Shown here: positions 2,160 through 58,508 of the stretch, piece by piece
How positions within the stretch are numbered: position 1 is the stretch's first letter
Layout of the letters: every line of letters begins with the position of its first letter
From: a bacterium
Lineage (GTDB): Bacteria > Patescibacteriota > Dojkabacteria > JAKAPS01 > JAJZLI01
Length of the DNA: 58,508 nt
Direction of reading: 5' to 3'
NCBI GenBank assembly: GCA_021785355.1
Contig: JAJYFR010000006.1
Location: 1 to 58,508, forward strand
Program-made: the position numbers and the translations under genes
Notes under the pieces: generated by a model
Database searches by the model: none
The model's input: only the letters and a program-made list of their open reading frames with translations
Told to the model about the DNA's origin: nothing

Positions 2160-2578
2160 CTTTCTATATTAATATATCTTACTCCATTTTTTATCATAAA
2201 ATTGATTTTTATAATATTAAAACCATTTAGTATATCCAAAAATTTATCTGCCCATTCTATTATAACAAGACCTTCCCCCAGTACATCAAAAAAATCTATA
2301 TTTACAAGATCTTCCTTACTATCCATTCTATACCAATCAAAATGATAAACTGGACCTTTTAAAGATTCATAATCTGATCTGAGTACAAATGTAGGAGAAG
2401 TAACATTATCTAAAACCCCTAATTCTTCCAATAAAAATTTAGTGAAGGTTGTTTTTCCAGCACCCAGATCTCCTATCAGACAAATTATTTCATTACCTTT
2501 TAAAGTTTTTGAAAATTCACTGGCGATTTTCTTTGTATCTTTAAGATTATCTATCTTTATCATTCTAATAAAATTCAA
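2156..2578 (-). CDS. tsaE: t6A biosynthesis ATPase TsaE (likely start ATG at 2563)
   Basis: GDLGAGKTTF, VTSPTF, YHFDWYR, IIEWA motifs. Confidence 0.96.
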   Translation of the reverse strand: MNFIRMIKIDNLKDTKKIASEFSKTLKGNEIICLIGDLGAGKTTFTKFLLEELGVLDNVTSPTFVLRSDYESLKGPVYHFDWYRMDSKEDLVNIDFFDVLGEGLVIIEWADKFLDILNGFNIIKINFMIKNGVRYINIER

Positions 2579-2777
2579 TTGACTACATTATAGAATATAT
2601 CCTTAATTTTTTATAATTTTGTTTTTTGATAATATTTAAAACTGTAAAAAATAGATAAGATAACAATTAATACCAGAGATATTATATCCCTCTAACTGAT
2701 CACCATGTTCTGACATCCGAATATTACAATATTAACAAAAATATTTTATTAATTATATAACGATACTCCTATATAAA

Positions 2778-5596: not shown

Positions 5597-5704
5597 TTTT
5601 CCTCATTATAAAACAATTCTTTTTGCTTAAAAATACCGACCATATGAGTTTTAGATGTTTAACAAATTCTCATACTACAAAACAAATGTGGGTGTCTCAT
5701 TACT

Positions 5705-5731
5705 TGACCTTAAGTTGCCTAAGATCGAACC
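5705..5731 (-). repeat. att-like repeat of the tRNA-Glu array (site E4)
   Basis: Minus strand GGTTC-N15-AAGGTCA; the 7-mer equals the tRNA-Glu 3' end. Confidence 0.75.
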
Positions 5732-5813
5732 ACTTTTGGTTTGGATTACAAAAATCATAAATAGCACTATATAATTTTACATATATAATCAATGGGTTCA
5801 ATTTAACTATTTA

Positions 5814-6254
5814 CTATTCCATTTTAAAATCTAAAATATATTTAACAGACGTTATTTTATTTTTTACATTATTAAACAATTTTTTATCTGCTGTAATGAA
5901 ATCATATTTCAAAAATTGTGAAAGGGTGACATAGGAGGCATCATAAAAAGATAAATCGTATTTTATTGATATGTCTAATATATCTAAATAGATTTCTTTT
6001 AAATCATAAAAAATTATTCCATAGTTATTAAAGAGATCTAAAGACTCTTTAGCTAAATTGATATCCAGTTTCTTTAATCTCACTGCTTTGGAAAATACAT
6101 TTCCAATCTCATAATTGAGTATTGCAGGGGAATGTAAATTGATTTGTCCTATATCATATAAATGTTTTAATTTTAGTGCAATATCAATATGTTCTTCTTT
6201 GGGGAATTGTAAATACCATTTAACAATAATTGAATTATCTAAAATTAAATTCAT
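5814..6254 (-). CDS. VapC/PIN-domain toxin
   Basis: LILDNSIIVKW, YEIGN, LSFYDASYV, FITADKKL. Confidence 0.92.
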   Translation of the reverse strand: MNLILDNSIIVKWYLQFPKEEHIDIALKLKHLYDIGQINLHSPAILNYEIGNVFSKAVRLKKLDINLAKESLDLFNNYGIIFYDLKEIYLDILDISIKYDLSFYDASYVTLSQFLKYDFITADKKLFNNVKNKITSVKYILDFKME

Positions 6255-6499
6255 CTCAAATCCTTTTTACTTTCTACAACAATATCAGAGAAATCTTTGA
6301 TTTTTAAGTTTTCTCTAATTTTATCTACTTTTGTGCCTATTATTAATCTTTTGCTATTATCATTTATATCTTGCATTCCTCTAAGAATCAACATATTTAT
6401 TACTTTTTGTAAAGATATTTTTTGGTTATACGCAATATCCCGTGCTTGTTTTATTAATACAGTATTTATTCTAATTGTTGTTCTTTCTGTTTTATCCAT
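6251..6499 (-). CDS. Putative VapB-type RHH antitoxin
   Basis: ERTTIRI RHH start; overlaps the PIN toxin. Confidence 0.8.
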   Translation of the reverse strand: MDKTERTTIRINTVLIKQARDIAYNQKISLQKVINMLILRGMQDINDNSKRLIIGTKVDKIRENLKIKDFSDIVVESKKDLR

Positions 6500-6621
6500 A
6501 TTATTATATTAGCATCAGAGTGACATGATGTCAAGATGTATGTTTCAGACATTTCAAACAGCACTTATATCCAAGAGTATCAATACATTCGGGATGTTTC
6601 AAGTGGGGATGCCTTGTTAAT

Positions 6622-6649
6622 TGGGCTTAAGTTGCCTCAGAATAGAACC
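6622..6649 (-). repeat. att-like repeat of the tRNA-Glu array (site E3, degenerate)
   Basis: GGTTC-N16-AAGCCCA; flanked by CAATACATTCGGGATGTTTC, also found next to the tRNA. Confidence 0.7.
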
Positions 6650-6732
6650 TACTTTTGATTTGGGTTAATAAAAGTATAGGAGCTATTTGCACCTAATTAT
6701 TAGGTTAAATATCTTATAATGGCTCTAGTACG

Positions 6733-7158
6733 TCAGCTATTTTCTTTTATTTCTGTAATAGAGAGAGGTAAACAATAATGATCTGTAAACCTTCCAGCTT
6801 GTGTATCAAATTCCTTACCTTTTTGTTTAAGTTCACTACTTCCTGTAGCAATCACTTTAATTTTAAATTCATCATATAGAATTTTAAGTACAACAGTAGC
6901 CTGAGGATGATTCTGTACTTCATCAATAAGAATAATCTTGTGTGTAGCAACAATTTTCTCTAATAAGGATCTATCTGGAACAAATTTTTCATAATCTGAT
7001 GAAAAATCAAAATTAAAAATAGGAACACCAAGTTTTTCAGAAATTTGTTTTAACAACGTTGTTTTCCCAGAACGTCTTGGCCCCCAAATATAGAATGTTT
7101 TATAATCTTTTCCTTGTAAATAGATTTCTATTTCATTCTCAATCAATCTTTTTAACAT
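6733..7158 (-). pseudogene. Truncated AAA_14 ATPase (N-terminal domain only)
   Basis: GPRRSGKTT, IDEVQ, ATGSS, AGR; ends at 141 aa without the C-terminal domain. Confidence 0.8.
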
Positions 7159-7291
7159 AATATTATTAGATCATATTACTATTAAAATGTAAGCTATCAC
7201 TTTGCAAATTAATATTAATATGTAAAGTACAATTAAGATATATCTTAAACTAATAGCTTAACAGTCTAATTTAGTAAAAAATATCCTATGG

Positions 7292-7354
7292 TGACCTTGG
7301 CATGCCTCAGGCAGAACCGCTTTTAGTCTGGATTGTGAAATTAGTGAAAGTATA
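7292..7354 (-). repeat. att-like repeat of the tRNA-Glu array (site E2)
   Basis: 63 bp, one mismatch to 8253-8315; begins with TGACCTTGGC, the complement of the tRNA-Glu 3' end. Confidence 0.9.
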
Positions 7355-7390
7355 CTGAAAAGTCTATTAACAATAATAGAATAATAATTA

Positions 7391-7666
7391 TTAATAAACT
7401 TGATTATGAGTACCTATATCAATAAAAATGAAAATTATATTCTTTTCCTCTTCAAAATATATAACCCTACAATCACCAGCTATAGAGAATACTCTATATT
7501 TCTTCATTTTACCTTCAAGCTGATGATCTCTCAAAACTGGATTAGATTTATCTTCTATAAATAATTCTAATCTTTCTTTATATCTTTTTCTTAAAATATT
7601 ATTATTTTCAATCCTTTTCTTATAATGTTTAACAAATTTCCTATCTAACCTTATTTCTTTATCCAT
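7391..7666 (-). CDS. YafQ/RelE-family mRNA interferase toxin
   Basis: KFVKHYKK...LRDHQLEGKMKKYRVFSIAGDCRVIY...DIGTHNQVY. Confidence 0.92.
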   Translation of the reverse strand: MDKEIRLDRKFVKHYKKRIENNNILRKRYKERLELFIEDKSNPVLRDHQLEGKMKKYRVFSIAGDCRVIYFEEEKNIIFIFIDIGTHNQVY

Positions 7667-7675
7667 TTTGAAATC

Positions 7676-7993
7676 TTAATCATCTTTAACTTGATCTACA
7701 AGTTTATCTAGTTCCTCTGCAGAATGAATTGTATATGCATTACCTCTCTTTATAGCCTCTTTAGTTTCTTTTAGCCTTTTGTCTAAAAATTGTTCATATT
7801 CTTCACTAATATGCTCAACTGTATCCTCAACCATAAAAGAAGTTTTAATCCTACCTTCAGAAAAACTCATTAAAAAAACTCTAACAACTTCTTGTATAGA
7901 ACTATATCCGTAATCTTCAGCAACTTTCTCTGCCTTCTTTTTTAAAGACATTTTCATAGGAATTTGTATTTTTGTATAATCTGTAGTACTCAT
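7676..7993 (-). CDS. RelB-like antitoxin
   Basis: TKIQIPM...LKKKAEKVAEDYGYSSIQEVVRVFL; immediately upstream of the toxin. Confidence 0.82.
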   Translation of the reverse strand: MSTTDYTKIQIPMKMSLKKKAEKVAEDYGYSSIQEVVRVFLMSFSEGRIKTSFMVEDTVEHISEEYEQFLDKRLKETKEAIKRGNAYTIHSAEELDKLVDQVKDD

Positions 7994-8081
7994 GACTTTT
8001 TTATTATTAATGATATTATTATACTCTTTTAATACGAAGCATACAAGGCTGTCTATAGTACCTATACATTACCAATCTCAT

Positions 8082-8168
8082 ATACAGTATTTATTCTAAT
8101 TGTTGTTCTTTCTGTTTTATCCATATTATTATATTAGCATCAGAGTGACATGATGTTAGATGTATGTT
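8082..8168 (-). repeat. Duplicate of the antitoxin 5' end and promoter (6457-6544)
   Basis: 75 bp identical (6457-6531 vs 8082-8156); similarity continues toward the att-like site. Confidence 0.9.
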
Positions 8169-8252
8169 ACTAAATCAAGCATTTCAATCCGCATTTTTAG
8201 CCTATTATATCAATACATTCGGGATATTTCTGTAGTGGGGTGTCGCATCACT

Positions 8253-8315
8253 TGACCTTGGCGTGCCTCAGGCAGAACCGCTTTTAGTCTGGATTGTGAA
8301 ATTAGTGAAAGTATA
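8253..8315 (-). repeat. att-like repeat of the tRNA-Glu array (site E1)
   Basis: TGACCTTGGCG core shared with tRNA-Glu; left flank 8211-8252 similar to 9115-9156. Confidence 0.9.
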
Positions 8316-8414
8316 TAAGCTTTAAATAACTATTAATGTAGCAATAAAAATCTACTTTATGGTACTTGCCGTCAAACAGTTGTAATATTGACAGCAAAGT
8401 GTTAGTATGTTTGT

Positions 8415-8666
8415 ATGGATGAAGAAGTAAAAACAACAATTAGATTACCTAGATATTTGATTAAAGAGTATAAAAACTTTGCAAAGAATACACATACTAG
8501 TATGAATAGTTCTATTGAGACAGCCTTGAAGTATTTCTTATCTAAAGAGATAACTGTACAAATAAGTGTACTCAATAACAATATTAAAAAAATTAAAATT
8601 CCAACTTTTAGTATGGGTAATATAAAAAGAATAGACAGAAAGAGTATTTATGAAGATATTGTTTGA
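8415..8666 (+). CDS. Putative RHH antitoxin (VapB-like)
   Basis: VKTTIRLP start, IDRKSIYED end; overlaps the PIN gene. Confidence 0.82.
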   Translation: MDEEVKTTIRLPRYLIKEYKNFAKNTHTSMNSSIETALKYFLSKEITVQISVLNNNIKKIKIPTFSMGNIKRIDRKSIYEDIV

Positions 8667-9075
8667 TACAAATATATTAGTTTATGCACATAACGCAGAT
8701 TCCCCATTTAATCAAAAAGCATTAGAGTTATATAACACAACGGAAAATATATGCACCACCCAGCAAAATCTTTTAGAGTTCTACTCTGTGATTACCAATG
8801 ATAAAAGAGTAGAGAAACCTGTGACTGATATGAAAGCACAGTCTTTATTAAAATTTTACTCTGATTCGCAAAAATTTAATATCATATCTCCTAATATAAA
8901 TACTATAAAAATATTAAATGAATTAGCCACTCAGTATAGATTTAAGGGTGTTGAAATTTTTGACATATATATTGTTGCTACTATGATTTCTAATGATATT
9001 TCAATAATATATACTGCAGATACAAAAATCTTTAAGAAATTTCAATCAATAACAGTACTAAACCCATTTATCTGA
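8650..9075 (+). CDS. VapC/PIN-domain toxin
   Basis: ILFDTNILVYA, LLEFYSVIT, IFDIYIVATM, IYTADTKIF. Confidence 0.92.
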   Translation: MKILFDTNILVYAHNADSPFNQKALELYNTTENICTTQQNLLEFYSVITNDKRVEKPVTDMKAQSLLKFYSDSQKFNIISPNINTIKILNELATQYRFKGVEIFDIYIVATMISNDISIIYTADTKIFKKFQSITVLNPFI

Positions 9076-9156
9076 ATATAAAGTATCTGTCATATGTAAT
9101 CTACATAGGCATTTCAATACATTCGGGATGTTTCTGTGGTGGGGTGTCGCGTTAAT

Positions 9157-9230
9157 TGACCTTGGCGGGATTTGAACCCGCGATTTTCAGGATGAGAACC
9201 TGGTGTCCTAGACCACTAGACGACAAGGCC
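9157..9230 (-). tRNA. tRNA-Glu(CTC)
   Basis: GGCCTTG...CAAGGTC acceptor stem, D-loop TAGTGGTCTAGGAC, anticodon loop TTCTCAT, T-arm GGTTCAAATCC; no encoded CCA. Confidence 0.95.
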
Positions 9231-9296
9231 ATAACAATAAAGAATTATATCATAAAATAAATTTACTTTTGTTATTTTTTTTAGTAACATAAACTC

Positions 9297-11247: not shown

Positions 11248-11397
11248 ATGATAAACAGAAAATTACAAAAAATAATAATTGAAAAACTTCGTAATTATGA
11301 TAAAAGTATATTGCTATATGGAACAAGACAAGTAGGTAAAACCACCTTAGTAAAAAATATTATCAGTGAATTAGGATATAAAACTCTTTCTATAAAC
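11248..11397 (+). pseudogene. 5' fragment of an AAA_14 ATPase
   Basis: MINRKL...YGTRQVGKTTLV; homology stops at a hairpin element. Confidence 0.8.
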
Positions 11398-11451
11398 TTC
11401 CCACGACCTCACGGTCGGAGTTTTAAGTTCGGAGTCTATAAAGATATTTTT
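11328..11451 (+). repeat. 124-bp target-site duplication, left copy
   Basis: Identical to 13060-13183. Confidence 0.95.
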
Positions 11452-13059
11452 CCTGACTTCCCCAATCAATCAAGGTAGAGATTTGTGATATTGTATTAGA
11501 GCCACAAAATGATAGAAAAATGTTAAAATGGCATACTAATGTATCATCATGTGGAAGATTAGAACTACAAGAACAAATTCTGGGAATATTGCTGTACAAG
11601 TTGTTGAGAATTCTTCTCATAAGGTTAATGTGATAAAGCATATTGGTACAGGTAGAAATGAACAAGAAGTTGAAGATCTTAAGATGCTTGGATATGAATA
11701 TATACAAAAACACAATGTTGATTCAGGACAGATTTCTTTTCTTGATGAGAAAAAGAGTAGTTTAGTATCAATTGATAATTTAAATCTCATTCATACTAAT
11801 CATGCTTTTGCACATGAATATCTATCTCATATATATGAGATTTACGGATTTAATTCTCTAGAAAAGAAACTGCTGCAAGATTTAGTGATTGTAAGAATAC
11901 TTGAACCTGTATCTAAAACAGAGTCAATAGACCTCATAGAAGAGTACTTTAACATTCAATATTCTAAAGGATCTCTTTATCGTAATTTACTCGCGATCTC
12001 TTCAATAAAAGATCAGATTGAAGAGATTGCCGTAGATTATGCAAAGAGAAACCTTAATTTTGATTTCTCTTTGGTATTCTACGATGTCACAAATCTATAC
12101 TTTGAATCTTTTAAATCTGATGAATTTAGAAAGCCTGGTTTCAACAAGGATGGGAAATCTCAACAACCTCAAGTTGCAATAGGATTGGTTGTAAACTCTG
12201 ATGGGTATCCGATATCAATAGAGATCTTTGAAGGTAACAAGTTTGAAGGACATACTTTCATACCTGTAATATTAGCTTTAAAGGAGAAATACAATATTAA
12301 TACTCTCACAGTAGTAGCTGATGCTGCTATGCTATCTTACGATAATATGAAAGCTTTAGAAGAGAATGGACTATCCTTCATAGTAGGTGCAAGGCTTTCT
12401 AAGGTTGACAGTAAGGTATTAGAATCAATAGCAGCAGAACTTAACAGGGAAGAAGGTAAATATATATCAACAGATACAAAGTATGGAACACTAGTTACTG
12501 ATTACTCACGCAAAAGAGCACAGAAAGATAAATCAGATAGGAATAAGCAGATTAGAAAAGCTCAAGCACACATACAGTATCCATCAAAAAATAGAAGACC
12601 TAGATTTGTTAAACAAACAAGTAAAACTGCGCTAGAGATAAATACTGAATTAATAGAAGCAGATGAGCTTAAAGAGGGTATCAAAGGATATTACACGAAT
12701 CTTGTAGATATTTCTCCTCAATTAATAGTTGCAAGATATCATGATTTATGGCATGTAGAGAAATCATTTAGGATTGCAAAAGGTGATCTTAAGGCAAGGC
12801 CAATATACCATAGGAAAAAAGATATGATACTCTCTCATATATTAATTGTTTTCATAGGATTATGTTTATCAAAGTATCTAGAAGTTAATACAGGATTATC
12901 CATAAAGGTCATAAGGAAAAGTATTATGAGGATAGTTGATGTAACAATGCAAGACTCTTTAACTCAACAGTCTTTTACTAAAAGAATGACTATTCCCAAC
13001 TCAGATATATACGCTACTTTATTAAAACTTCTCTAGGCATACTAATTGGGGAAGTCAGG
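11452..13059 (+). mobile_element. IS1634-family insertion sequence (1608 bp)
   Basis: 15-bp terminal IRs CCTGACTTCCCCAAT / ATTGGGGAAGTCAGG; long flanking direct repeat. Confidence 0.95.
11549..13036 (+). CDS. IS1634-family DDE transposase
   Basis: FYDVTNLYFES, GFNKDGK, VVADAAM, YHDLWHVEKSFRIAK, ARPIYH. Confidence 0.96.
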   Translation: MWKIRTTRTNSGNIAVQVVENSSHKVNVIKHIGTGRNEQEVEDLKMLGYEYIQKHNVDSGQISFLDEKKSSLVSIDNLNLIHTNHAFAHEYLSHIYEIYGFNSLEKKLLQDLVIVRILEPVSKTESIDLIEEYFNIQYSKGSLYRNLLAISSIKDQIEEIAVDYAKRNLNFDFSLVFYDVTNLYFESFKSDEFRKPGFNKDGKSQQPQVAIGLVVNSDGYPISIEIFEGNKFEGHTFIPVILALKEKYNINTLTVVADAAMLSYDNMKALEENGLSFIVGARLSKVDSKVLESIAAELNREEGKYISTDTKYGTLVTDYSRKRAQKDKSDRNKQIRKAQAHIQYPSKNRRPRFVKQTSKTALEINTELIEADELKEGIKGYYTNLVDISPQLIVARYHDLWHVEKSFRIAKGDLKARPIYHRKKDMILSHILIVFIGLCLSKYLEVNTGLSIKVIRKSIMRIVDVTMQDSLTQQSFTKRMTIPNSDIYATLLKLL

Positions 13060-13183
13060 ACAAGTAGGTAAAACCACCTTAGTAAAAAATATTATCAGTG
13101 AATTAGGATATAAAACTCTTTCTATAAACTTCCCACGACCTCACGGTCGGAGTTTTAAGTTCGGAGTCTATAAAGATATTTTT
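13060..13183 (+). repeat. 124-bp target-site duplication, right copy
   Basis: Identical to 11328-11451. Confidence 0.95.
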
Positions 13184-49024: not shown

Positions 49025-50434
49025 ATGAGAGTAAGAACACGAATTGCTCCATCACCTACCGGAGATCCTCATATAGGAACGATATATCAGGCACTATTTG
49101 ATTATGCATATGCAAAACAAAATAAAGGAAATTTTATTTTAAGAGTTGAAGATACTGACAGAGAAAGATTTGTAGAAGGAGCAACTCAAAAAATCTTATC
49201 TTCTCTTAAGTGGTTTTCTATTGAACCTGATGAAAGTCCTGTGCATGGAGGAGATTTTGGACCATATGTTCAATCAGAGAGATTAGATATATATAAAAAA
49301 TATATTAACGATTTAATATTAAAAAAAGAGGCATATTTGTGTTTTTGTACAAAAGAAAGACTTGATCATATAAGAGAAGAACAAATAAAAAATAAACAAC
49401 AGCCTAAATATGATAAACATTGCTTAAATCTTACAAAAAAAGAGATTGATGATCTAATAAATAAAGGTACACCTTCTGTTGTTAGATTAAATGTCAAACC
49501 AGGAATTGATATTATTTTTAATGACCTTATCAGAGGAGAAATCAAAATTAAGACTGATTCATTTGATGATCAAGTATTATTAAAATCTGATGGATATCCA
49601 ACTTATCATGCAGCAGTAGTAATAGATGATCATTTAATGAAAATAACTCATATTATAAGAGGGGAAGAATGGATATCTTCTACTCCAAAACATATACTTT
49701 TATATAAAGCTTTTGAATGGGATATTCCTATGTTTGCTCATTTATCTTTACTTAGAAATAGAGATAAATCAAAAATATCTAAAAGACATAATAATACATC
49801 CATAGATTGGTACAAAAAAGAAGGATATCTTCCTGAAGCATTAACTAATTATCTTTTATTATTAGGGTGGTCTCATCCAGAAGGAAAAGAAGTATATTCT
49901 TTAGATGAATTTATTAAAAAATTTTCATTTGATAGGGTAAGTAAAGGTGGTCCTATCTTTGATATAGATAAACTTAATTGGATAAATGGTGTATATATAA
50001 GATCTAAAAGTGTTATTGAAATAAAAAAACTTATAAAGCCTTATTTAATATATGATATTGAAAATAAGAAATTAGAAGAGATTATAAAACTTATACAAGA
50101 TAGATTAAAAAAATTATCAGAAATAAATGATTTAATATCATTTTTTGTAGAAACACCTCAAATAGATCAAGAAATTTTGGAAAACATAATATCTAAAGAT
50201 AAAATAGATGAAATATGTGATATATCATATAAAACTATTGAGGATAAAGGTATTAATCGTGACACAGAAGAAACTCTTAGAAATTATGCTATAGAAAAAG
50301 GATATAATATTGGAGATTTCTTTATGATTATAAGAATAGTTACAACTGGTAAAAAAGCTACACCACCTTTATTTGATACATTATCTATAATAGGGAAAAA
50401 AGAAACATTAAAAAGGCTAAAGAATGGGAGATAG
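49025..50434 (+). CDS. gltX: Glutamyl-tRNA synthetase
   Basis: RIAPSPTGDPHIG, RVEDTD, KISKR. Confidence 0.97.
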   Translation: MRVRTRIAPSPTGDPHIGTIYQALFDYAYAKQNKGNFILRVEDTDRERFVEGATQKILSSLKWFSIEPDESPVHGGDFGPYVQSERLDIYKKYINDLILKKEAYLCFCTKERLDHIREEQIKNKQQPKYDKHCLNLTKKEIDDLINKGTPSVVRLNVKPGIDIIFNDLIRGEIKIKTDSFDDQVLLKSDGYPTYHAAVVIDDHLMKITHIIRGEEWISSTPKHILLYKAFEWDIPMFAHLSLLRNRDKSKISKRHNNTSIDWYKKEGYLPEALTNYLLLLGWSHPEGKEVYSLDEFIKKFSFDRVSKGGPIFDIDKLNWINGVYIRSKSVIEIKKLIKPYLIYDIENKKLEEIIKLIQDRLKKLSEINDLISFFVETPQIDQEILENIISKDKIDEICDISYKTIEDKGINRDTEETLRNYAIEKGYNIGDFFMIIRIVTTGKKATPPLFDTLSIIGKKETLKRLKNGR

Positions 50435-50496
50435 TTTAACGGTAAAACGCTACGCTCTGAACGTAGTAAGTCTAGGTTCGATTCCTAGTCTCCCAG
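50425..50496 (+). tRNA. tRNA-Gln(CTG)
   Basis: TGGGAGA/TCTCCCA acceptor stem, anticodon arm CTACG-CTCTGAA-CGTAG, GGTTCGATTCC; overlaps the gltX 3' end. Confidence 0.95.
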
Positions 50497-50576
50497 AAAT
50501 TATCTATAGACTAAAATTCTATGTATGGACATATAAATATGTTTTATTTTCTGTAATTGTTTGATATACTTTAATT

Positions 50577-50756
50577 ATGAGTAAAGAAGAGAATAAGAAA
50601 CTTATAAAATTATACCAAGAGTATAGACAAAGAAAAATATTGAAAGAGGATGTCTTACAATTTTCACGTGATTTTATGCCTGAAATGATTTATCGTACAA
50701 CTAAATTAGAAGGTGAGCCTGTTACAAGACAAATGGTATCTTTACTATTTAAATAA
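50577..50756 (+). CDS. Putative Fic antitoxin (VbhA/FicA-like; not in ORF track)
   Basis: 59 aa MSKEENKK...IYRTTKLEGEPVTRQMVSLLFK; (S/T)xxxEG inhibitory motif; TAATG overlap with Fic. Confidence 0.78.
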   Translation: MSKEENKKLIKLYQEYRQRKILKEDVLQFSRDFMPEMIYRTTKLEGEPVTRQMVSLLFK

Positions 50757-51388
50757 TGGTCAAAAGTGGTACGAAACCTAAAGGCGCAACATCATATAAA
50801 GATACAGCTTTTGGAATTATTTCTCGAGAAGAACTTATTAAGCTTGAGATTGAAGGGATAAAGAGAGGACTAGAATATTTATATGATCTAGTGCAAAAAC
50901 AAGAACAGGTTGCAATTACTTCAGAATTAATAACGAAACTTCATGAAATTTCTTTTGGTTGGATTTTTCCTAAATGGGCAGGAAAATATAGAACAATTCA
51001 AGTAACATTTTCTGATAAAGAAGCTCCACCATATTATCAAGTATCAGAATTAATGTTCAATTTCTCTAAAGATATAGAATCACGGTTACAAAATCTCCCT
51101 ACTCCAGATAAAGAAAACTTTATTTTTGAAATAATATCCTTATCAGCTTGGTTTCAACATAGATTTGTTTTTATTCATCCATTCCAAGATTACAATGGGA
51201 GGACAGCACGAATGCTAACGACTTTCATATTACTACAATTCAAACTACCCTCTATTGAATTAAAAGCAGATACAGGAGATGACAGGAAACAATATCTTAA
51301 AGCAATGAGGAAAGCAGATGATGGTGATTATAAACTTCTTGAAAGACTTATTAGCCGAGCACTAACAGACAGTCTTAATCATATTTAA
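50756..51388 (+). CDS. Fic-family adenylyltransferase toxin
   Basis: WAGKYRT, IHPFQDYNGRTAR. Confidence 0.93.
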   Translation: MVKSGTKPKGATSYKDTAFGIISREELIKLEIEGIKRGLEYLYDLVQKQEQVAITSELITKLHEISFGWIFPKWAGKYRTIQVTFSDKEAPPYYQVSELMFNFSKDIESRLQNLPTPDKENFIFEIISLSAWFQHRFVFIHPFQDYNGRTARMLTTFILLQFKLPSIELKADTGDDRKQYLKAMRKADDGDYKLLERLISRALTDSLNHI

Positions 51389-51457
51389 TTCTATTATTTT
51401 TCATCATATCTAATTTATCTAGTTTTTCAACGGTTGAAATGAGATTTTTAAAAATGG

Positions 51458-51484
51458 GGTTCCACATACGGGACAGCTTTCCAG
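51458..51484 (+). repeat. att-like repeat of the tRNA-Gln array (site Q1, most divergent)
   Basis: GGTTC-N15-TTTCCAG(AAA) versus tRNA GGTTC-N10-CTCCCAG(AAA). Confidence 0.55.
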
Positions 51485-51619
51485 AAAATAATATCTATTA
51501 ATTTATATATTCAATTTATTCTTTTAAATCCGTATGAAATAGCAATTTGCTATGTATGGCAAAGACAATATTAATAATTAATGTTAGAATTCAATCAATT
51601 ATTTTATTGATTAAATAGT

Positions 51620-52357
51620 ATGTATAATATAACTTTATCTGGAAGCTTTAGGAAACATTTAAAAGAGATTGGGGAGGTTAAAAATATTTTTGAGAAAGAG
51701 CAAAACATAATATTATCTCCAAAATTTCTTGATACAAAAAATTCTCAAGAAGAATTTGTTTTGTTTGAAGAAGAAAAAAGTACATCCCCAAAGACTCTCG
51801 AAAATTTACATTTAAATGCAATTTCTAAATCGGATTTTCTTTATTTAGTTAATCCAAAAGGATATATTGGTAATTCTGCTACTATGGAAATTGGTTATGC
51901 AATATCAAGAGGAATTCCTATATATTCATATGAAAAATCTGAAGAATTTATATTAAACTTATATATTGAAAAATATGGAGATCCTAAAGAAATACTCTCT
52001 TATCATAAAAAACATTATGAAAAGAGAAGACAAGATAATTTTTCCAAATCTTTAGGATTAAAAGAATTACAAGAGTATATATCTGTAAAAGTAAAAGAGA
52101 GAGGATTTGAAGATGAAAGTGCAAAAGATTTATTAGTTCTTTTAATGGAAGAGGTAGGAGAGTTTGCAAAAGCAATAAGAAAATATTCAGGAATAAAAAT
52201 AGATAGTGAGAAAAAGGAAAAATATCCAGCTTTGCAAGAAGAAATTGCAGATGTATTAATTTATATAATTGATCTTGCAAATATATTAAATATTGATTTA
52301 GATGAAAGCTATAGAATAAAAGAAGATATCAATGATTCTAGATTTTGGAATAAATAA
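51620..52357 (+). CDS. Fusion of a nucleoside 2-deoxyribosyltransferase-like domain and a MazG NTP pyrophosphohydrolase
   Basis: N-terminus ITLSGSF...HLNAISKSDFLYLVNPKGYIGNSATMEIGYA; C-terminus LMEEVGEFAKAIRK...EEIADVLIY. Confidence 0.85.
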   Translation: MYNITLSGSFRKHLKEIGEVKNIFEKEQNIILSPKFLDTKNSQEEFVLFEEEKSTSPKTLENLHLNAISKSDFLYLVNPKGYIGNSATMEIGYAISRGIPIYSYEKSEEFILNLYIEKYGDPKEILSYHKKHYEKRRQDNFSKSLGLKELQEYISVKVKERGFEDESAKDLLVLLMEEVGEFAKAIRKYSGIKIDSEKKEKYPALQEEIADVLIYIIDLANILNIDLDESYRIKEDINDSRFWNK

Positions 52358-52365
52358 TTATTGAT

Positions 52366-52953
52366 ATGAACAAAATTTTATTAATATCAGGTCCTTCTGG
52401 TATAGGTAAAAGTTATATATTAAAAAAATTGATTTCTAGCTCATCTCAGTATGAAGCTATATTATCAACTACAACTAGAGAAATGAGAGAAGGTGAGTCT
52501 GATGGAATAGACTATGAATTCTTAACTAGAAATGAATATGTTAACTCTAAACAAAAGTTTTTTATGGATAATTATTTTTTTAATAATTTTTATGGCATTA
52601 AGAAAAAAGTGGTAGATGATATTTTGGAAAAGAGAAAAATTCCAGTAGGAATAATTTATACTCCTGTGATTCATCAATTTTTAAAAGCTTATCCAGATGC
52701 TTTAACTATATTTCTATATCCGCAAAACATAGATTTATGGAAAGAAAATTTATTGAAAAGAGATGGAAGTTTAGACAGATATCAATATGCGTTAGATGAA
52801 TTAAGTAAATGGGAAAATGACTATAGTCGATATTATAATAAAGTATATTATATAAATTCTAATAATGATGATAGAACAATAATTAATGAGATCAATCACT
52901 ATTTTGATATTTACAGGGATAGGGAGGGGAGTATAAAGGAAGAATTTCATTAA
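52366..52953 (+). CDS. Guanylate kinase-like protein
   Basis: ISGPSGIGKS, STTTREMREGESDGIDYEFLT, FYG. Confidence 0.87.
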   Translation: MNKILLISGPSGIGKSYILKKLISSSSQYEAILSTTTREMREGESDGIDYEFLTRNEYVNSKQKFFMDNYFFNNFYGIKKKVVDDILEKRKIPVGIIYTPVIHQFLKAYPDALTIFLYPQNIDLWKENLLKRDGSLDRYQYALDELSKWENDYSRYYNKVYYINSNNDDRTIINEINHYFDIYRDREGSIKEEFH

Positions 52954-53053
52954 TAGTCTTGATTGATTTCTTTATATCTATTTCTGAAAATATGTTAGAG
53001 AATAATAAAATACAAGATTTAAAAAAATTTAATAGATACTATAGTAAGTGTTA

Positions 53054-53132
53054 TGTTGTCAAACCATTAAGATTGAGAATGGAAATTGACGAAAACAGGA
53101 GAGTTTTCTATGATCTTAATGGTTTGACAACA
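53054..53132. mobile_element. 79-bp MITE-like element
   Basis: Perfect 20-bp terminal IRs TGTTGTCAAACCATTAAGAT; one end recurs at 4198-4223. Confidence 0.75.
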
Positions 53133-53310
53133 AAATACCTATTTATTGTATTCCTATTCACTAGTACTATTTTGCTACTTTGCGTCGCATTTATATCACT
53201 TGCAAAACATCTTATTAGTAACTGAAATTTTCTTCTAGAAATACGTACCCTTTTTTACTTTCATTATCTAGATTTTAAGATATTTTATATCTCTTATCTA
53301 GGCTACACCC
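53133..53310 (-). pseudogene. IS1595-family left end and transposase N-terminal relic
   Basis: Minus strand reads RISRRKFQLLIRCFASDINATQSSKIVLVNRNTINRYF; upstream end GGGTGTAGCCTAGATAAG. Confidence 0.65.
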
Positions 53311-53345
53311 TATTTTATTCTCTAACTTACACATATCACATTAAA

Positions 53346-53372
53346 AGTTCGAATAATGTCAACAGTCCCCAG
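53346..53372 (+). repeat. att-like repeat of the tRNA-Gln array (site Q2)
   Basis: AGTTC-N15-TCCCCAG. Confidence 0.65.
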
Positions 53373-53475
53373 TTAACTCTTTTCAACCATGTATGAATAA
53401 CTTTTTAGTAAGTAGTTCAAGTTGTTATATAAAAACTGAGATCTATTTTTATTTTGAATATGTTATAATATTTGT

Positions 53476-53760
53476 ATGAATAAAATTAATTACACACTAC
53501 CAGTTTTAATATTTAAGGAAGACGACCTTTTTGTTGCATATACTCCTGCTTTAGATTTATCTACTGTCGGAGATACTTATGATAAAGCATTAAAAAACTT
53601 TCGTGAAGCTAGTGGCATATTTTTTGAAGAAGTTTTAAAAAAAGGAACTTTAGAAGAAGTTTTAATGGAGTATGGATGGAAGAAAACAGGAAAAACTTTT
53701 GAACCACCAATACAGATATCAAGTGAACCTGTTAATATAACAGTTCCAAGCAGAAGATGA
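53476..53760 (+). CDS. HicB-like antitoxin
   Basis: IFKEDDLFVAYTPALDLSTVGDT..KALKNFREA. Confidence 0.88.
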   Translation: MNKINYTLPVLIFKEDDLFVAYTPALDLSTVGDTYDKALKNFREASGIFFEEVLKKGTLEEVLMEYGWKKTGKTFEPPIQISSEPVNITVPSRR

Positions 53761-53978
53761 AACCTATATCATGGAAAGAATTTGATAAATTTCTACTTTA
53801 TGTAGGTTGTATTTATGATAGACAAAAAGGAGATCATAGAATATATTGGAGAAGTGATTTAAAAAGACCTATTGTATTACCCATGTATAAAAATCTCCCA
53901 AAATTTGTTATTAAGAATAATATAAGATTACTTGGGCTTACCAATAAAGAGTATTTAGAAATATTAAAGAAAATTTAA
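53757..53978 (+). CDS. HicA-family toxin
   Basis: RQKGDHRIY, RPIVLP. Confidence 0.9.
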   Translation: MKPISWKEFDKFLLYVGCIYDRQKGDHRIYWRSDLKRPIVLPMYKNLPKFVIKNNIRLLGLTNKEYLEILKKI

Positions 53979-54023
53979 TATAAATTTATACTTTACTGTT
54001 CCAATATATAATATAATTAAGTA

Positions 54024-54755
54024 ATGTATCAGAACAATAAAAATTATTATAGATTTAAATCAATTATTTCTAATTTACAGTTTATTGATAAATCAATATT
54101 GTTAAATAAAGACTTGATTTTAGAAGAAGATAAAGGAATTAAAATTTATTATGCTCCTTTTGAGTACATAAATAAGGATGCAAAAATTATAATTATAGGA
54201 ATTACTCCTGGATTTACTCAAATGCAAATTTCATATCGAGAATTAGTAAAAGGAATAAATAATAATTTGACTGATTTACAAATATTACAGAATGTTAAAA
54301 AAGAAGCTAGTTTTGCAGGAGTTATGAGAAAGAACTTAGTTGAAATGTTAGATGAGTTAAATATTAATACTTATCTAAAAATATCTACTACAGATAAACT
54401 CTTTAAAGAATATAACCATTTGTTACATAGTACTTCAGTAATAAAGTATCCAGTTTTTGTAAATAACCACAATTATACAGGTCATACTCCAAATATTTTA
54501 AAAACTAAAATTTTGTATGATTATATATTTGATGGATTAGGGAAAGAACTTACTTCAATACCTGACGCAATAATAATACCTCTAGGAAAAATTGTCCAAG
54601 ATTCTTTAAATTTATTGATATATGACAATAAAATTGATAGCAATAGGATATTGTTAAATTTTTCACATCCATCAGGAGCTAATGTAAATAGAAAAAATTT
54701 CTTTAATAAAAATAAAAAGCATTATGTTTCTCAGATAGAGAAATTATTTAAATAG
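54024..54755 (+). CDS. Uracil-DNA glycosylase-like superfamily protein
   Basis: YYAPFEYINKDAKIIIIGITPG, IIIPLG, HPSGAN. Confidence 0.75.
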   Translation: MYQNNKNYYRFKSIISNLQFIDKSILLNKDLILEEDKGIKIYYAPFEYINKDAKIIIIGITPGFTQMQISYRELVKGINNNLTDLQILQNVKKEASFAGVMRKNLVEMLDELNINTYLKISTTDKLFKEYNHLLHSTSVIKYPVFVNNHNYTGHTPNILKTKILYDYIFDGLGKELTSIPDAIIIPLGKIVQDSLNLLIYDNKIDSNRILLNFSHPSGANVNRKNFFNKNKKHYVSQIEKLFK

Positions 54756-54778
54756 TGAGTATCATTTCTTACTATTAG

Positions 54779-54805
54779 GGTTCTGACATTGTCCACAATA
54801 CCCTG
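54779..54805 (+). repeat. att-like repeat of the tRNA-Gln array (site Q3)
   Basis: GGTTC-N15-TACCCTG; TATTAGGGTTCTGACAT shared with 57085-57101. Confidence 0.75.
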
Positions 54806-54951
54806 TTGACAATAGTATAAAATTGTCAATGTGTACTACTCAATTATCTTGCTAAATCAATATAAACTTGAAATTTGCTATGCATGGCAAAGACAAAATT
54901 ATAAATAAGTACTACTATAGAGATAATAAAAAATAAGGAGGTGATTATATT

Positions 54952-55080
54952 ATGGAAACATTAGAGAAAGATATAATAACACCATTAGAGTGGTTAACAG
55001 ATGATAATGTTCAAAAAATAACCATGTGGCAAACATATTCTACCCATAAGGATGATGCAGATGATACTAATGATGATTAG
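54952..55080 (+). CDS. Putative graspetide (ATP-grasp RiPP) precursor peptide (not in ORF track)
   Basis: METLEKDIITPLEWLTDDNVQKITMWQTYSTHKDDADDTNDD, 42 aa; strong SD TAAGGAGGTGAT; directly upstream of the ATP-grasp gene. Confidence 0.82.
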   Translation: METLEKDIITPLEWLTDDNVQKITMWQTYSTHKDDADDTNDD

Positions 55081-55157
55081 AATAAATGGTAAAAGAGAAT
55101 AATTAAATATAAAAATAAAATTATTATCTACATTCTTTAATATTATTTTTTGTCTTT

Positions 55158-56984
55158 ATGATACATATAAGAAGAAAATATTATCTTGATATATACAAAG
55201 AGATATTCGTAATTTATTATAATAATGAAAGTGATCAACTTATTGATGAAGTCATTCAATATGTTTATGATAAATGTTTAGATGATATCTTTAAAGAGAT
55301 AGGTAAAATTTTCACATTTAAAGATAATCAATATTATTATGTTATGAAAACCGCAAAAATTGGGGTAAGATATAAACATAGTATTTATGTTTATAAAATT
55401 AATTTTAAACATAAATATAATTTACAATATGAAAAATTATTAAAAGAAATTCCAATGCTCTCTTCTGGTGAACTTATTCCATCCGTCAATGAAATGTACT
55501 TTAATAAAAAGAAAATGTATTTTGATAAAAAAAATCTGAGTTACTTTTCAACATATAAACTTTACAAAGATTTATTAAAGTTAAAATCTAATAAAGATAT
55601 AGAAGAAATATTTAATGGTAGAATAGAAGATTTAATACCTTTTTTAACATATTATAAATTTAGTAAAGTAATTTGTAACCTTTATTATTTAAAGACTCCT
55701 GATGAGAGACTAGATATAATAAAAGAATTTTTAACTTTTCCTTTTAATATTACGTACGATACTTTTTTATCTGAAATAATTGCTGAATTGGCATATTTGT
55801 CATCCATTAAAAAGTACAATGATGTTGCTAATAAATTGTTATCTCAGTTAATTAATAAGATAGAGAATGATGTATATATTCTTGCAGATACACAGATGGT
55901 AACCTTCAAAGGGTCATTTAACGAAAAAAATATTGATAAAATCTACAAATATATTAATAATAAAGTTGATTTATATTCACAAATAGACCCTGGAGGTTTT
56001 ATTGGAATTCTTAATAATCAAGATTTTTTTATATCAGATAAATATAAATATAAAAAAAGAAAGATATTAATTATATCAGAGCAAAATGACCCACATGTTG
56101 AGAGAGTGTTGAGTTTTATTAATCAGAAAAAATATCATGTAGATGTATTTGGTGTTAATGATTTAGAGAATGATGGGTATGTTGATACTCTATCAGAAAT
56201 GACTGGAGAATTTTTTGATACTGACAAAAGACATCATAGAGTATATGATATTTGTTGGTGGAGAAAACCAATATTTATTACTCCTTCTCAAAAATATTTA
56301 AAGAATATAAACCTATCTAATATTGCAAAAAAAGAAAAAATAAATTTTTTAGAAGGAATTATATTAAATATGTCAATAAAAAGTTGGGTGAATCATAAAT
56401 CAGATATGAAAAAAGCTTCAAATAAAATACATCAGTTAAGTCTTATAAGAATGAATATCCCTAGAACAGTAATTACTAATAAAAAGGAAGTCATTAAAAA
56501 AATATTTGAAGATAAGTTTATTATGAAAACGTTGCAATCTCAAAGTTTGGGATTAGAGGATGGTGTATTAAAAACAACTTTAACAAATATTAACGATATA
56601 GATAAAATTGATTTGAATTTTATGCCTGTTATCTGTCAGGAATTTATAGATAAAATTTGTGATATCCGAGTTACTATTGTTGGGAATAAAATATTTGCAG
56701 CTAAAATATTCTCACATTCAGAAAAATCAAAAATAGATTTTAGAACTGATTATAGTAGTTTAACTTATGAAAAATGTAAATTATCAAAAGATATAGAAGA
56801 TGAATTGTTGAGATTAAATAAATATTACAATCTTAATTATTCTGCCATTGATCTTATACAAGATAAAAATGGTGAGATATACTTTTTAGAATTAAATCCG
56901 AATGGTCAATATCTTTGGATTGAAGAGTCATTAACTCTTCCTATTTCAAAGAATATTGCATCTTTTTTAAAAGGAGATAAATAG
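55158..56984 (+). CDS. MvdC/MvdD-like ATP-grasp peptide macrocyclase with an unknown N-terminal domain of about 295 aa
   Basis: ILIISEQNDPH, WWRKP, WVNH..ASNKIHQL, IPRTVITN, QEFIDK..DIRVTIVG, IDFR, AIDLI, YFLELNPNGQYLWIE. Confidence 0.9.
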   Translation: MIHIRRKYYLDIYKEIFVIYYNNESDQLIDEVIQYVYDKCLDDIFKEIGKIFTFKDNQYYYVMKTAKIGVRYKHSIYVYKINFKHKYNLQYEKLLKEIPMLSSGELIPSVNEMYFNKKKMYFDKKNLSYFSTYKLYKDLLKLKSNKDIEEIFNGRIEDLIPFLTYYKFSKVICNLYYLKTPDERLDIIKEFLTFPFNITYDTFLSEIIAELAYLSSIKKYNDVANKLLSQLINKIENDVYILADTQMVTFKGSFNEKNIDKIYKYINNKVDLYSQIDPGGFIGILNNQDFFISDKYKYKKRKILIISEQNDPHVERVLSFINQKKYHVDVFGVNDLENDGYVDTLSEMTGEFFDTDKRHHRVYDICWWRKPIFITPSQKYLKNINLSNIAKKEKINFLEGIILNMSIKSWVNHKSDMKKASNKIHQLSLIRMNIPRTVITNKKEVIKKIFEDKFIMKTLQSQSLGLEDGVLKTTLTNINDIDKIDLNFMPVICQEFIDKICDIRVTIVGNKIFAAKIFSHSEKSKIDFRTDYSSLTYEKCKLSKDIEDELLRLNKYYNLNYSAIDLIQDKNGEIYFLELNPNGQYLWIEESLTLPISKNIASFLKGDK

Positions 56985-57090
56985 CGATAATAAAGATTTA
57001 TTAAATATTCTTAATCTTATTTTATAATAATATAATTTATAATTACTTAAATAAATAGTGATAAGGACTGGGATATGAATTTATTATTAG

Positions 57091-57117
57091 GGTTCTGACA
57101 TCGTCTAAGATACCCAG
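57091..57117 (+). repeat. att-like repeat of the tRNA-Gln array (site Q4)
   Basis: GGTTC-N15-TACCCAG. Confidence 0.75.
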
Positions 57118-57192
57118 CCAATGCGACAATTATTAACCTATCCAATATGACAAAAAGTATTATTTATTTAAAATACATGATAATATTGTCGT

Positions 57193-58185
57193 ATGAACTT
57201 AAATAAAAATACTAGTTACGTATTAATACATATTCTTAACGGGAATAATACTTCTAAAAAAATTAGCGAACAATTACGAAACGTCAATATTCGTTCTATT
57301 CAACGTGCTTTAATCAGACTAACAGACTTAGGATTATTGACACGTATCGGGACGAATCATCCTAATTACAGCATTAACTATGAAGTATTGTTAGACTTAA
57401 ACATTTCCGATAAATTACTAGAGAACGAAAATCGACCTAAAAGTATGTTCAATCATGAACTTATAGAATGGTTAACTAAATTATCTACTAAAGAACTAGA
57501 ATTGCTATTAAAAATCGATGATGATAAGTTAGTATTTAAACATCCCAATAAAATGACAGCTAAAGAACTGGAGTATCTTACTATTGAGCTTTCGTGGAAG
57601 TCGTCAGCTCTCGAGGGTAATACATATACATTATTAGATACTCAATTATTACTTCTAGAAGGAATAAAGGCTAAGAACAGAACAGAGTTTGAGACACAGA
57701 TGATTCTAAATCATAAAGATGCCATTGCTTTTATAGTTGAGAATAAAGAATTATTCTCCAATAACATAAAATTTAGAACAGTTGAAGAACTTCATAGGAT
57801 AATTGGTAAAAATCTAGGAATAGAGAGTGGAATTAGAAAACAAATTGTCAGGATCACTGCTAGCAACTATGAACCTCTATCTAACCCTCATCAATTAAGA
57901 GAAAATGGTGACTACATTTTGGAAATAATAAATAGAACGACTAACTCTTATATAAAAGCACTTCTGGCTCTTTCCCTAATTCCATATTTACAAATATTTG
58001 AAGACGGCAATAAAAGGACTGGAAGGATGTTCGCCAATGCCATATTAATAAGTCATATCAATAAAGGTTTTAGTCTACGCCAAACAGATGCTAAAAAACT
58101 GGCCATAGCTTATTTGGCTTTTTATGAATTCAACAGCATTCATGCTCTAAATAAGATTCTTAAAACTGAACTTCAATCAAACTAG
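57193..58185 (+). CDS. wHTH-Fic family protein
   Basis: N-terminal HTH (SIQRALIRL), SWKSSALEGNTY inhibitory helix, LQIFEDGNKRTGR. Confidence 0.9.
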   Translation: MNLNKNTSYVLIHILNGNNTSKKISEQLRNVNIRSIQRALIRLTDLGLLTRIGTNHPNYSINYEVLLDLNISDKLLENENRPKSMFNHELIEWLTKLSTKELELLLKIDDDKLVFKHPNKMTAKELEYLTIELSWKSSALEGNTYTLLDTQLLLLEGIKAKNRTEFETQMILNHKDAIAFIVENKELFSNNIKFRTVEELHRIIGKNLGIESGIRKQIVRITASNYEPLSNPHQLRENGDYILEIINRTTNSYIKALLALSLIPYLQIFEDGNKRTGRMFANAILISHINKGFSLRQTDAKKLAIAYLAFYEFNSIHALNKILKTELQSN

Positions 58186-58508
58186 GGTTGAGCTTCATGT
58201 CTTCCTAATGAATATGAGTATTTTTCCAATCTAAATTTATATACTGAAATACTAAGAATCAAGTAATCATAATTTAAACATTTTTTTAAATAATTAGTAT
58301 ATATGACATCTTCCACGATACACAGATTTGATTTTTTCCTATTTTGATTTTAAGAAAACAATTGATTTAGATTATATAAATAGGAGTTTGAATTGACTTA
58401 TATATTTTCATTGAATAATCTAGATAGATTGGATACAATATAAAATAGAGTTATGAATCAAAAACTTATACAAGCAAGTAAAAAGGTTATATTAGATTGT
58501 TGTTTAGA

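Follow-up and report, generated by a model that had tools for sequence, protein, structure and literature searches.

Graspetides are protease-inhibitor-like, cross-linked peptides, and the ligases that make them join Thr, Ser, or Lys side chains to Asp or Glu, giving omega-ester or omega-amide macrocycles. The precursors of microviridins carry a PFFARFL leader and a TxKYPSD core. This report concerns a small open reading frame (ORF) and the adjoining ligase gene on contig JAJYFR010000006.1 of assembly GCA_021785355.1, a stretch that was analyzed over its whole length of 58,508 nucleotides (nt) and is referred to below as the window. Judged by sequence comparison, the two genes at 54952-56984 are likely to form a real and functional graspetide-type unit, consisting of a precursor and its ligase, in a bacterium of the Patescibacteria, or candidate phyla radiation (CPR).

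Graspetide clusters of CPR bacteria have been reported by Makarova et al. 2022, with ATP-grasp enzymes of branches 1 and 2, and the role of graspetides in ultra-small epibiotic CPR bacteria was raised there as an open question (PMC8939145). A RODEO survey by Carter et al. 2026 distinguished 43 graspetide groups; in the portions of that paper drawn on here, groups 27 and 42 include many candidate-phyla examples, and groups 27, 28, and 35 consist of a synthetase and a precursor only (PMC13097080). The rosaritide pair MirB and MirC, from the same portions, is a graspetide synthetase that depends on a partner protein (PMC13097080). A literature search on graspetides together with Patescibacteria, CPR, or Saccharibacteria returned no further relevant paper among those listed. 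The features of the window unit and its borders are as follows.

54779 to 54805, plus strand: left junction repeat of 27 nt, GGTTCTGACATTGTCCACAATACCCTG; the exact 15-mer TTAGGGTTCTGACAT begins at 54775
54875 to 54890, no strand assigned: 16-nt palindrome TTGCTATGCATGGCAA, a candidate promoter or operator within a conserved upstream module
54935 to 54945, plus strand: Shine-Dalgarno sequence AAGGAGGTGAT, 6 nt 5' of the ATG
54952 to 55080, plus strand: precursor peptide of 42 amino acids, with a leader at about residues 1-17, an indel-prone linker, and the core MWQTYSTHKDDADDTNDD
55158 to 56051, plus strand: orphan N-terminal domain, ligase residues 1-298, modeled at low confidence as a small alpha/beta lobe with an alpha-helical repeat behind it
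56064 to 56969, plus strand: graspetide-type ATP-grasp domain, ligase residues 303-604, with DFR at 527-529, YSAID at 561-565, and FLELNPNGQYLW at 576-587
57091 to 57117, plus strand: right junction repeat of 27 nt, GGTTCTGACATCGTCTAAGATACCCAG
58299 to 58325, plus strand: third, degenerate junction repeat (6 mismatches), which closes the neighboring Fic-gene cassette

The precursor had been proposed, in an earlier note made from the sequence alone, as an unannotated 42-residue ORF, and it is present exactly as claimed, its 42 codons encoding METLEKDIITPLEWLTDDNVQKITMWQTYSTHKDDADDTNDD and its end lying 77 nt from the ligase gene. The Shine-Dalgarno 11-mer AAGGAGGTGAT occurs five times in the 883-kilobase (kb) genome, and two of these copies precede the two graspetide-type precursors; as AAGGAGG is found only eight times over both strands of the window, its description as rare there was fair. 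The peptide has neither a PFFARFL leader nor a TxKYPSD core, which bears out the claim that it is not a microviridin. Its conserved leader and its core, with Thr/Ser/Lys donors and Asp/Glu acceptors, lie beside the ligase as expected of a graspetide precursor. The host suggested by the same note, a putative CPR bacterium, is compatible with an assembly that is small and AT-rich (883 kb, 26% GC, 94.7% complete, 13 contigs, the window being the entire contig C8) and with a homologue of the enzyme from a 'Patescibacteria group bacterium'.

Conservation of the small ORF beside homologues of the ligase, a further prediction of the note, was seen at six loci in four genomes, and eight database peptides are related to it. 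The loci are the window itself, contig C3 of the same assembly (METDTITPFDWLKDEVDEQIDSTKMTTLNSDDDSPSTTYTSSQPNDNDD), L001 and L018 of genome G385, L002 of G404 (METLERDTITPIDWLKDDVQEFDPEFDTKIVMWQTYSTWKSDADDTNDG), and L015 of G403 (METLENINPLEWLKDTDKQDTEILLGSATYTGAGTNNCDDQD); the L018 cluster is the second of G385 and encodes METLNEVNPLEWIQDTEIQEITNGEETYTAYDDRDNI, and the L001 precursor is of the window type with an in-frame TAA, which may be a sequencing error (contig coverage ~1.7x) or the mark of a pseudogene. At every readable locus, the precursor stands directly 5' of a member of the ligase clade. The eight database peptides were retrieved among 16 candidates with a profile built from five precursors, at E values from 1.6e-16 to 5.5e-3, and include two further variants of the window core (P0164, P0165) and one new core (P0168). 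All share the leader motif METL..P(L/I/F)(E/D)W(L/I)xD, and the pattern P[LIFVM][DE]W[LIVM].[DE], searched in six frames of the 883-kb genome among frames of fewer than 120 residues, found the two precursor ORFs only. Residues M1, E2, T3, P11, W14, D17, T31, and D41 are identical in all five aligned precursors.

The cores differ among these relatives, yet all consist of Thr/Ser followed by an Asp-rich segment. One leader carries cores as different as TYTAYDDRD, ATYTGAGTNNCDDQD, SYTTGNQGSDADD, and TTLNSDDD...STTYTSSQPNDNDD, which is the usual logic of peptides made by the ribosome and modified after translation (RiPPs). Within the window core type, MWQT[YH]ST[HWY]K.D[AP]DDTND is retained across five variants, with T28, S30, T31, K33, D35, D37, D38, T39, and D41 kept and positions 29, 32, 34, and 42 variable. 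An alignment of DNA from the window, L001, and L002 has four conserved blocks, namely the palindrome, the Shine-Dalgarno sequence with the start codon, the leader, and the core. The linker in this alignment has indels of 12 and 21 nt, each divisible by three, and conservation is poor in the spacer that follows the stop codon; a soil-metagenome contig has 12 extra nt in the precursor linker. The T31 codon is ACC, ACT, or ACA among three DNA copies, all synonymous. A metagenome scan with a 22-nt DNA string of the core gave only two chance matches, inside unrelated large proteins.

These patterns bear on the reading in which the small ORF arose by chance or encodes a regulatory leader peptide and the enzyme acts on some other molecule, chosen by its N-terminal domain. 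That this domain is unexplained, and that the complex prediction described below is weak in its support, would fit such a reading. It is nevertheless highly improbable, given a peptide family that is conserved at the protein level and always lies directly 5' of the ligase clade, with or without the N-terminal domain, indels that preserve the frame, and the combination of a conserved leader with a variable core that is the signature of RiPPs.

The ligase gene, 55158-56984, is an open frame of 608 codons. The earlier description of it as an MvdC/MvdD-like gene stands for residues ~303-604 and fails for the front ~298 residues, which are unrelated and had been overlooked. The whole protein gave no Pfam match at the default threshold, and its C-terminal 307 residues alone matched RimK (PF08443, 1.1e-9), the only Pfam match. 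Against NCBIfam, the best model was TIGR04187, an ATP-grasp ribosomal peptide maturase (1.4e-48, 165.7 bits; 168.6 bits for the C-terminal half alone), followed by MvdD (7.7e-40, 137 bits), MvdC (2.5e-39, 135.3 bits), grasp-with-spasm (2.4e-23), rimK_fam (4.4e-12, 46 bits), and LysX (9e-7, 28 bits). All six sequence matches in the PDB are graspetide ligases or MvdD-like or unnamed ATP-grasp proteins: CdnC (7mgv, 5.7e-23 over residues 301-604), 5ig9 (3.2e-21), 5ig8 (9.8e-18), AMdnB (7m4s, 2e-16), 9bou, and 7drm. The enzyme also has the DFR motif of graspetide synthetases, as DFRTD at residues 527-531, and DFR is kept in seven of the eight rows of the protein alignment (A1) that reach that region. 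This motif has been called critical for graspetide synthetase activity (PMC13097080).

Relatives of the full enzyme are few. In a word-indexed search of 5.8 billion proteins, the domain-bearing relatives numbered nine (P0002-P0010), full-length or fragments and 56-88% identical, and one further match had the ATP-grasp part only; full-length homologues in other genomes and samples are 81-88% identical to the 608-residue protein. To representatives outside its own family, the enzyme is only ~30-40% identical, and no relative turned up among 100 stretches in a metagenome scan with the protein alignment. In a tree of 59 rows (quick search, midpoint root), the stand-alone ligases P0012 and L018 and the fused enzymes form one clade, with a Shimodaira-Hasegawa-like approximate likelihood ratio (SH-aLRT) support of 100, and the other ATP-grasp type of the same class falls outside this clade.

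RimK acts on ribosomal protein S6. The precursor and ligase could thus be a real pair in which the enzyme extends or decorates the acidic tail of the peptide as RimK would, or ligates the peptide elsewhere, and no rings are made. Such an activity would suit a core that ends in an Asp-rich DDADDTNDD and an enzyme whose sole Pfam match is RimK and whose maturase scores all fall under the curated cut-offs. The maturase models, however, exceed rimK_fam by ~90-120 bits, none of the PDB matches is a RimK, and the DFR motif is present; the Thr/Ser positions of the core are kept despite synonymous codon changes, and the C-terminal residue of the peptide varies (D, G, or DF). A tailing enzyme is very improbable on this evidence, and the prediction that the ligase would group with RiPP maturases and not with RimK was upheld.

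The pairing itself was modeled as a complex. The ligase and precursor gave an ipSAE of 0.44 (runs of 0.44, 0.32, and 0.48), the best of three controls scoring 0.00; the partner had a pLDDT of 47-50 and no interface was reported. By the tool's counts, 116 of 157 solved complexes and two of 215 mismatches reach the mark used for this score, and those that reach it with a score of 0.60 or less comprise only 18 of the 157 solved complexes and both of the passing mismatches. The structure of a leader-ligase complex has already been solved, and likeness to it may contribute to the score. The prediction gives weak support to the pairing.

In the proposed mechanism, the 42-residue peptide would be translated from its very strong ribosome-binding site and its leader, METL..TPLEWLxD, would be recognized by the 608-residue enzyme. 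The ATP-grasp half would phosphorylate Asp side chains of the core, and the activated Asp residues would be joined to Thr or Ser as esters and possibly to Lys as an amide. Candidate nucleophiles are T28, S30, T31, and K33, and candidate acyl donors are D35, D37, D38, and D41, so that the product would be a multiply cross-linked, hairpin-like peptide. The N-terminal 298 residues would be a family-specific add-on that handles the substrate. The leader would presumably be removed, and export would proceed through the ABC exporter of a paralogous cluster on C3.

That paralogous cluster, at C3:320286-316436, consists of a precursor, a 605-residue ligase, and a 598-residue ABC exporter with ABC_membrane and ABC_tran domains and no C39 peptidase domain. 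It resembles the window unit in its promoter palindrome, Shine-Dalgarno sequence, and leader motif, and its ligase likewise has the N-terminal domain, with an ATP-grasp part 69% identical to that of the window. It differs in its precursor, which has 49 residues and a different, two-module core, in the exporter gene directly 3', and in a divergently oriented XRE-type helix-turn-helix gene 5' of it; beside this cluster, no copy of the 27-nt junction repeat was detected. The cluster belongs to a 28-kb array (C3:305000-335065) with seven TTGCTATGCATGGCAA palindromes, which also holds a third ligase gene that is broken (314540-315291), another ABC exporter of 654 residues, a histidine kinase, small Gly/Trp/Asp-rich ORFs of 67 and 80 residues, and two XRE-type helix-turn-helix proteins (266 and 251 residues) that are candidate regulators of the palindromes. 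An ABC exporter also follows in the stand-alone-ligase cluster of G385 (L018), where the stretch between precursor and ligase (2564-3271, minus strand) encodes a 235-residue protein that weakly resembles phosphoribosyltransferases (HGPRTase, E 0.009).

Several observations weigh against a functional graspetide unit in the window. The 165.7 bits for TIGR04187 lie below the 350-bit cut-off of that subfamily (GRASP_SAV_5884), and the microviridin equivalog cut-offs of TIGR04184 and TIGR04185 lie far above the scores obtained (475 against 137 bits for MvdD, 425 against 135.3 bits for MvdC). With all NCBIfam scores below the curated cut-offs, the enzyme counts as a divergent relative and as an equivalog of none of the named maturases. 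The 42-residue peptide has no double-glycine (GG) cleavage motif, and genes for a protease, an exporter, or immunity are missing from the window cassette, the absence of an adjoining protease or transporter having been noted correctly before. Decay is also evident in the family, in the form of a fragmentary ligase at C3:314540-315291 of the same assembly, the frameshifted G403 ligase, the in-frame TAA of the L001 precursor (~1.7x coverage), and the deletion of DFRT from the full-length homologue P0006. The latter protein also has a 20-residue C-terminal extension and may be inactive. A contig end of G404 (L002 1-174) carries a second partial ligase C-terminus, 2.3 kb 5' of the full cluster, possibly a tandem remnant, possibly an assembly repeat.

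The window copy might accordingly be a silent or decaying spare, intact by sequence and without a mature product for lack of an exporter, peptidase, or immunity gene, as the frequent fragments and broken copies in the ligase family and the position of the cassette in an accessory island 3' of a tRNA-Gln gene would allow. This reading is improbable. Both frames are open, the 608-residue protein has full-length homologues 81-88% identical, the promoter module, Shine-Dalgarno sequence, and core are among the best-conserved blocks of the locus, an independent sediment run yielded an identical contig over 54832-55265, and an exporter may be supplied in trans by the paralogous cluster. A functional pair of precursor and graspetide-type ligase is preferred, and it may plausibly belong to a new graspetide group.

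The N-terminal half of the ligase has almost no relatives. Of 8,710 proteins found with HMMER at E<=0.001 among 1.84 billion representatives, the best 150 include a single protein that spans the front half (P0010, query 10-520), the other 149 matching within ~297-607. A search with residues 1-298 alone retrieved only two proteins, each a fragment from this same family, and the domain occurs in two of 401 genomes sampled across the phylum, those of the host and of one member of the same genus. Seven members searched against Pfam at E<=10 gave scattered matches with E values of at least 0.0039, none common to more than three of the seven; a profile search of the PDB had no match at E<=10, and NCBIfam had none. 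Comparison by hhalign with the enzyme's own ATP-grasp half, with the 235-residue phosphoribosyltransferase-like protein of L018, and with a 238-residue protein of L015 gave probabilities of 0.1-0.2%. The best ESM Atlas score, 0.84, is no better than chance according to the figures given with the tool, and P0008 gave no match.

AlphaFold2 models of residues 1-298, built from seven sequences, had a mean pLDDT of 54.2, and the full-length model had a mean of 47.1, with the ATP-grasp half below 40. The models agree on a small alpha/beta lobe (strands 2-9, 14-21, 50-54, 58-64, and 75-81, helix 26-41) followed by a helix stack at ~133-276. Foldseek found no match to the model of the domain in the PDB at E<=0.001, and VIA-align ranked proteins with helical repeats highest (Nop9, CID domains, and Puf5, Z 9.1-10.3), with residues 1-100 barely covered. 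Residues 1-298 are best described as an orphan domain, probably an alpha-solenoid scaffold.

By analogy with the partner proteins of rosaritide (PMC13097080), this domain is most likely a built-in, partner- or chaperone-like module for substrate handling and not a second known enzyme. Two findings count against that role. The Z scores of 9.1-10.3 are inside the tool's chance range for helical models, and the pLDDT is 54; further, the stand-alone ligases P0012 and L018 (338 residues) adjoin precursors with the same leader and lack the domain. It follows from the latter that recognition of the leader as such does not depend on the N-terminal domain.

The flanks of the unit were described in the earlier note as att-like, and they are real repeats, with the 15-mer TTAGGGTTCTGACAT exact on both sides of the pair at 54775 and 57087. 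The 27-nt repeat has 12 copies in the genome at <=7 mismatches, compared with none in each of five shuffles, and these are often near contig ends. At <=3 mismatches, four of eight further genomes from the family have it and none of 12 outside the family do, with no match for a reversed-pattern control. The sites are often co-oriented and 0.9-4.5 kb apart, and contigs from other contexts part from the window exactly at 57117/57122, the right edge of the repeat. The claim of a single cassette held in part, in that the unit has repeat boundaries in the host genome; the orthologous clusters L001 and L002 have no detectable flanking 27-nt copies, and no contig was seen that skips the cassette or joins across it, the sole joint listed, 53732-53875, lying outside. 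The junction repeat is real, and mobility of the cassette may be a property of the locus.

An integron was not indicated, as PF00589 matched only twice in the genome, at C3:79 kb and C3:159 kb, both far from any array, and the 27-nt repeat is short, with no attC palindrome obvious by eye and no Rfam match. A tRNA-3'-end origin of the site was considered and is unsupported, since a comparison by eye with tRNA-Gln found agreement only at the ends, GGTTC...CCCAG. The palindrome TTGCTATGCATGGCAA has ~10 copies in the genome, always in accessory regions, including one at 51547 in the window and the seven of the C3 array, and the palindrome module is kept 5' of the precursor in L001, L002, and L018. 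These positions suggest that it acts as a promoter or operator. A scan for promoter and terminator consensus sequences was uninformative in such AT-rich DNA (31 found, 26.8 expected, no terminators), and an Rfam search of 50000-58508 found the tRNA-Gln only, plus two sub-threshold chance matches.

From 50.5 kb to the end of the contig, the window is an accessory island that follows the tRNA-Gln gene (CTG) at 50425-50496. The other genes placed in it are:

50756 to 51388: Fic-domain gene
51620 to 52357: MazG-like gene, preceded by a palindrome module at 51547-51562
52366 to 52953: guanylate-kinase-like gene
53476 to 53978: HicB/HicA
54024 to 54755: uracil-DNA glycosylase (UDG)-superfamily gene

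A second Fic gene, at 57193-58185, has its own 1.2-kb cassette between the repeats at 57091 and 58299 and is without the palindrome module. Elsewhere in the window, a 128-nt direct repeat, 99% identical between its copies at 11324-11451 and 13056-13183, flanks a 495-residue ORF (11549-13036), and several families of 40-75-nt direct repeats lie at 5683-9167, near a tRNA-Glu gene (9156-9231).

A bolder reading joins the two halves of these results. In it, the front half of the ligase would be a new, lineage-specific, built-in partner module needed for folding or for presentation of the peptide, and the whole unit, with its own operator or promoter and a perfect Shine-Dalgarno sequence, would be one of many self-expressed cassettes that this CPR family shuffles between arrays at the 27-nt junction with no integrase nearby. 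The combination is rather unlikely. If it is true, the N-terminal domain would correspond, in fused form, to the partner proteins that were first reported in 2026, and the arrays would form a new type of integron-like cassette system, in which Fic, HicAB, and further conflict genes are carried as well. The context of the cassette, with its 27-nt junction in four of eight other genomes of the family and its palindromic promoter module, may reflect an exchange of conflict genes among tiny genomes.

Graspetide-type ligases at E<=1e-15 occur in 13 of 221 genomes of the sampled class. Another, widespread minimal pair of this class was observed at seven loci (L034-L039 and L042, in genomes G157, G550, G191, G560, G556, G529, and G547), where a 31-residue ORF, MFAVKYFTEMDSTGPESTSTVGNESGQTDFD or a variant of it, has a strong Shine-Dalgarno sequence and lies ~105 nt 5' of a gene for a 311-residue ATP-grasp protein. 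The latter is 31-37% identical to the ATP-grasp part of the window enzyme.

The window pair is compact, with 42 codons and one enzyme, and its natural core variants share one leader. Together with natural enzyme variants that have or lack the extra domain, it offers a system for studying substrate tolerance and the contribution of the fused domain. Nothing at the locus overturns current knowledge, and its value is as a clean experimental system rather than as a surprise.

Compared with described systems, residues 303-604 of the window enzyme align end to end with solved synthetases of ~320 residues (CdnC 7mgv, 5ig9/5ig8, AMdnB 7m4s) and share with them the DFR, ...AID..., and ...E.N... segments. 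Unlike these, and unlike MvdC and MvdD, the enzyme has an extra N-terminal domain of 298 residues and is twice the usual size. The unit resembles microviridin-type systems in having a small precursor directly 5', with Thr/Ser/Lys followed by Asp residues; it differs in its leader, PLEWL in place of PFFARFL, and in its core, and, unlike MvdC/MvdD-type systems, its cassette contains no acetyltransferase, protease, or exporter.

In the part of the Carter 2026 supplement that was examined, there was no match to the leader and core strings of the window family or to MHB8362170 (PMC13097080). As rosaritide is presented in the portions of that paper drawn on here, the window system shares with it the idea of an extra, partly helical, chaperone-like protein that aids the synthetase (PMC13097080); in contrast to the rosaritide partner, the window module is fused to the synthetase N-terminus and has no detectable similarity to anything. 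No match to the same leader and core strings was found in the Makarova 2022 supplementary files examined, and the leader signature given in that paper, Phhx(1,2)h, is not matched literally by P-L-E-W-L, which reads P-h-x-h-h and is similar in character (PMC8939145). The CPR loci of that study, as far as they are described in the material used here, have 'cluster 23', TPR, peptidase, SPASM, or methyltransferase partners, of which the window has none (PMC8939145). Those loci and the window share a CPR host, a small and often unannotated precursor beside an ATP-grasp gene, a leader with Pro followed by hydrophobic residues, and Thr...Asp patterns in the core (PMC8939145). The graspetide class and the CPR host group are thus already known, and what is particular to the window locus is its fused orphan domain, its METL..P.EW..D precursor family, and its form as a self-promoted cassette.

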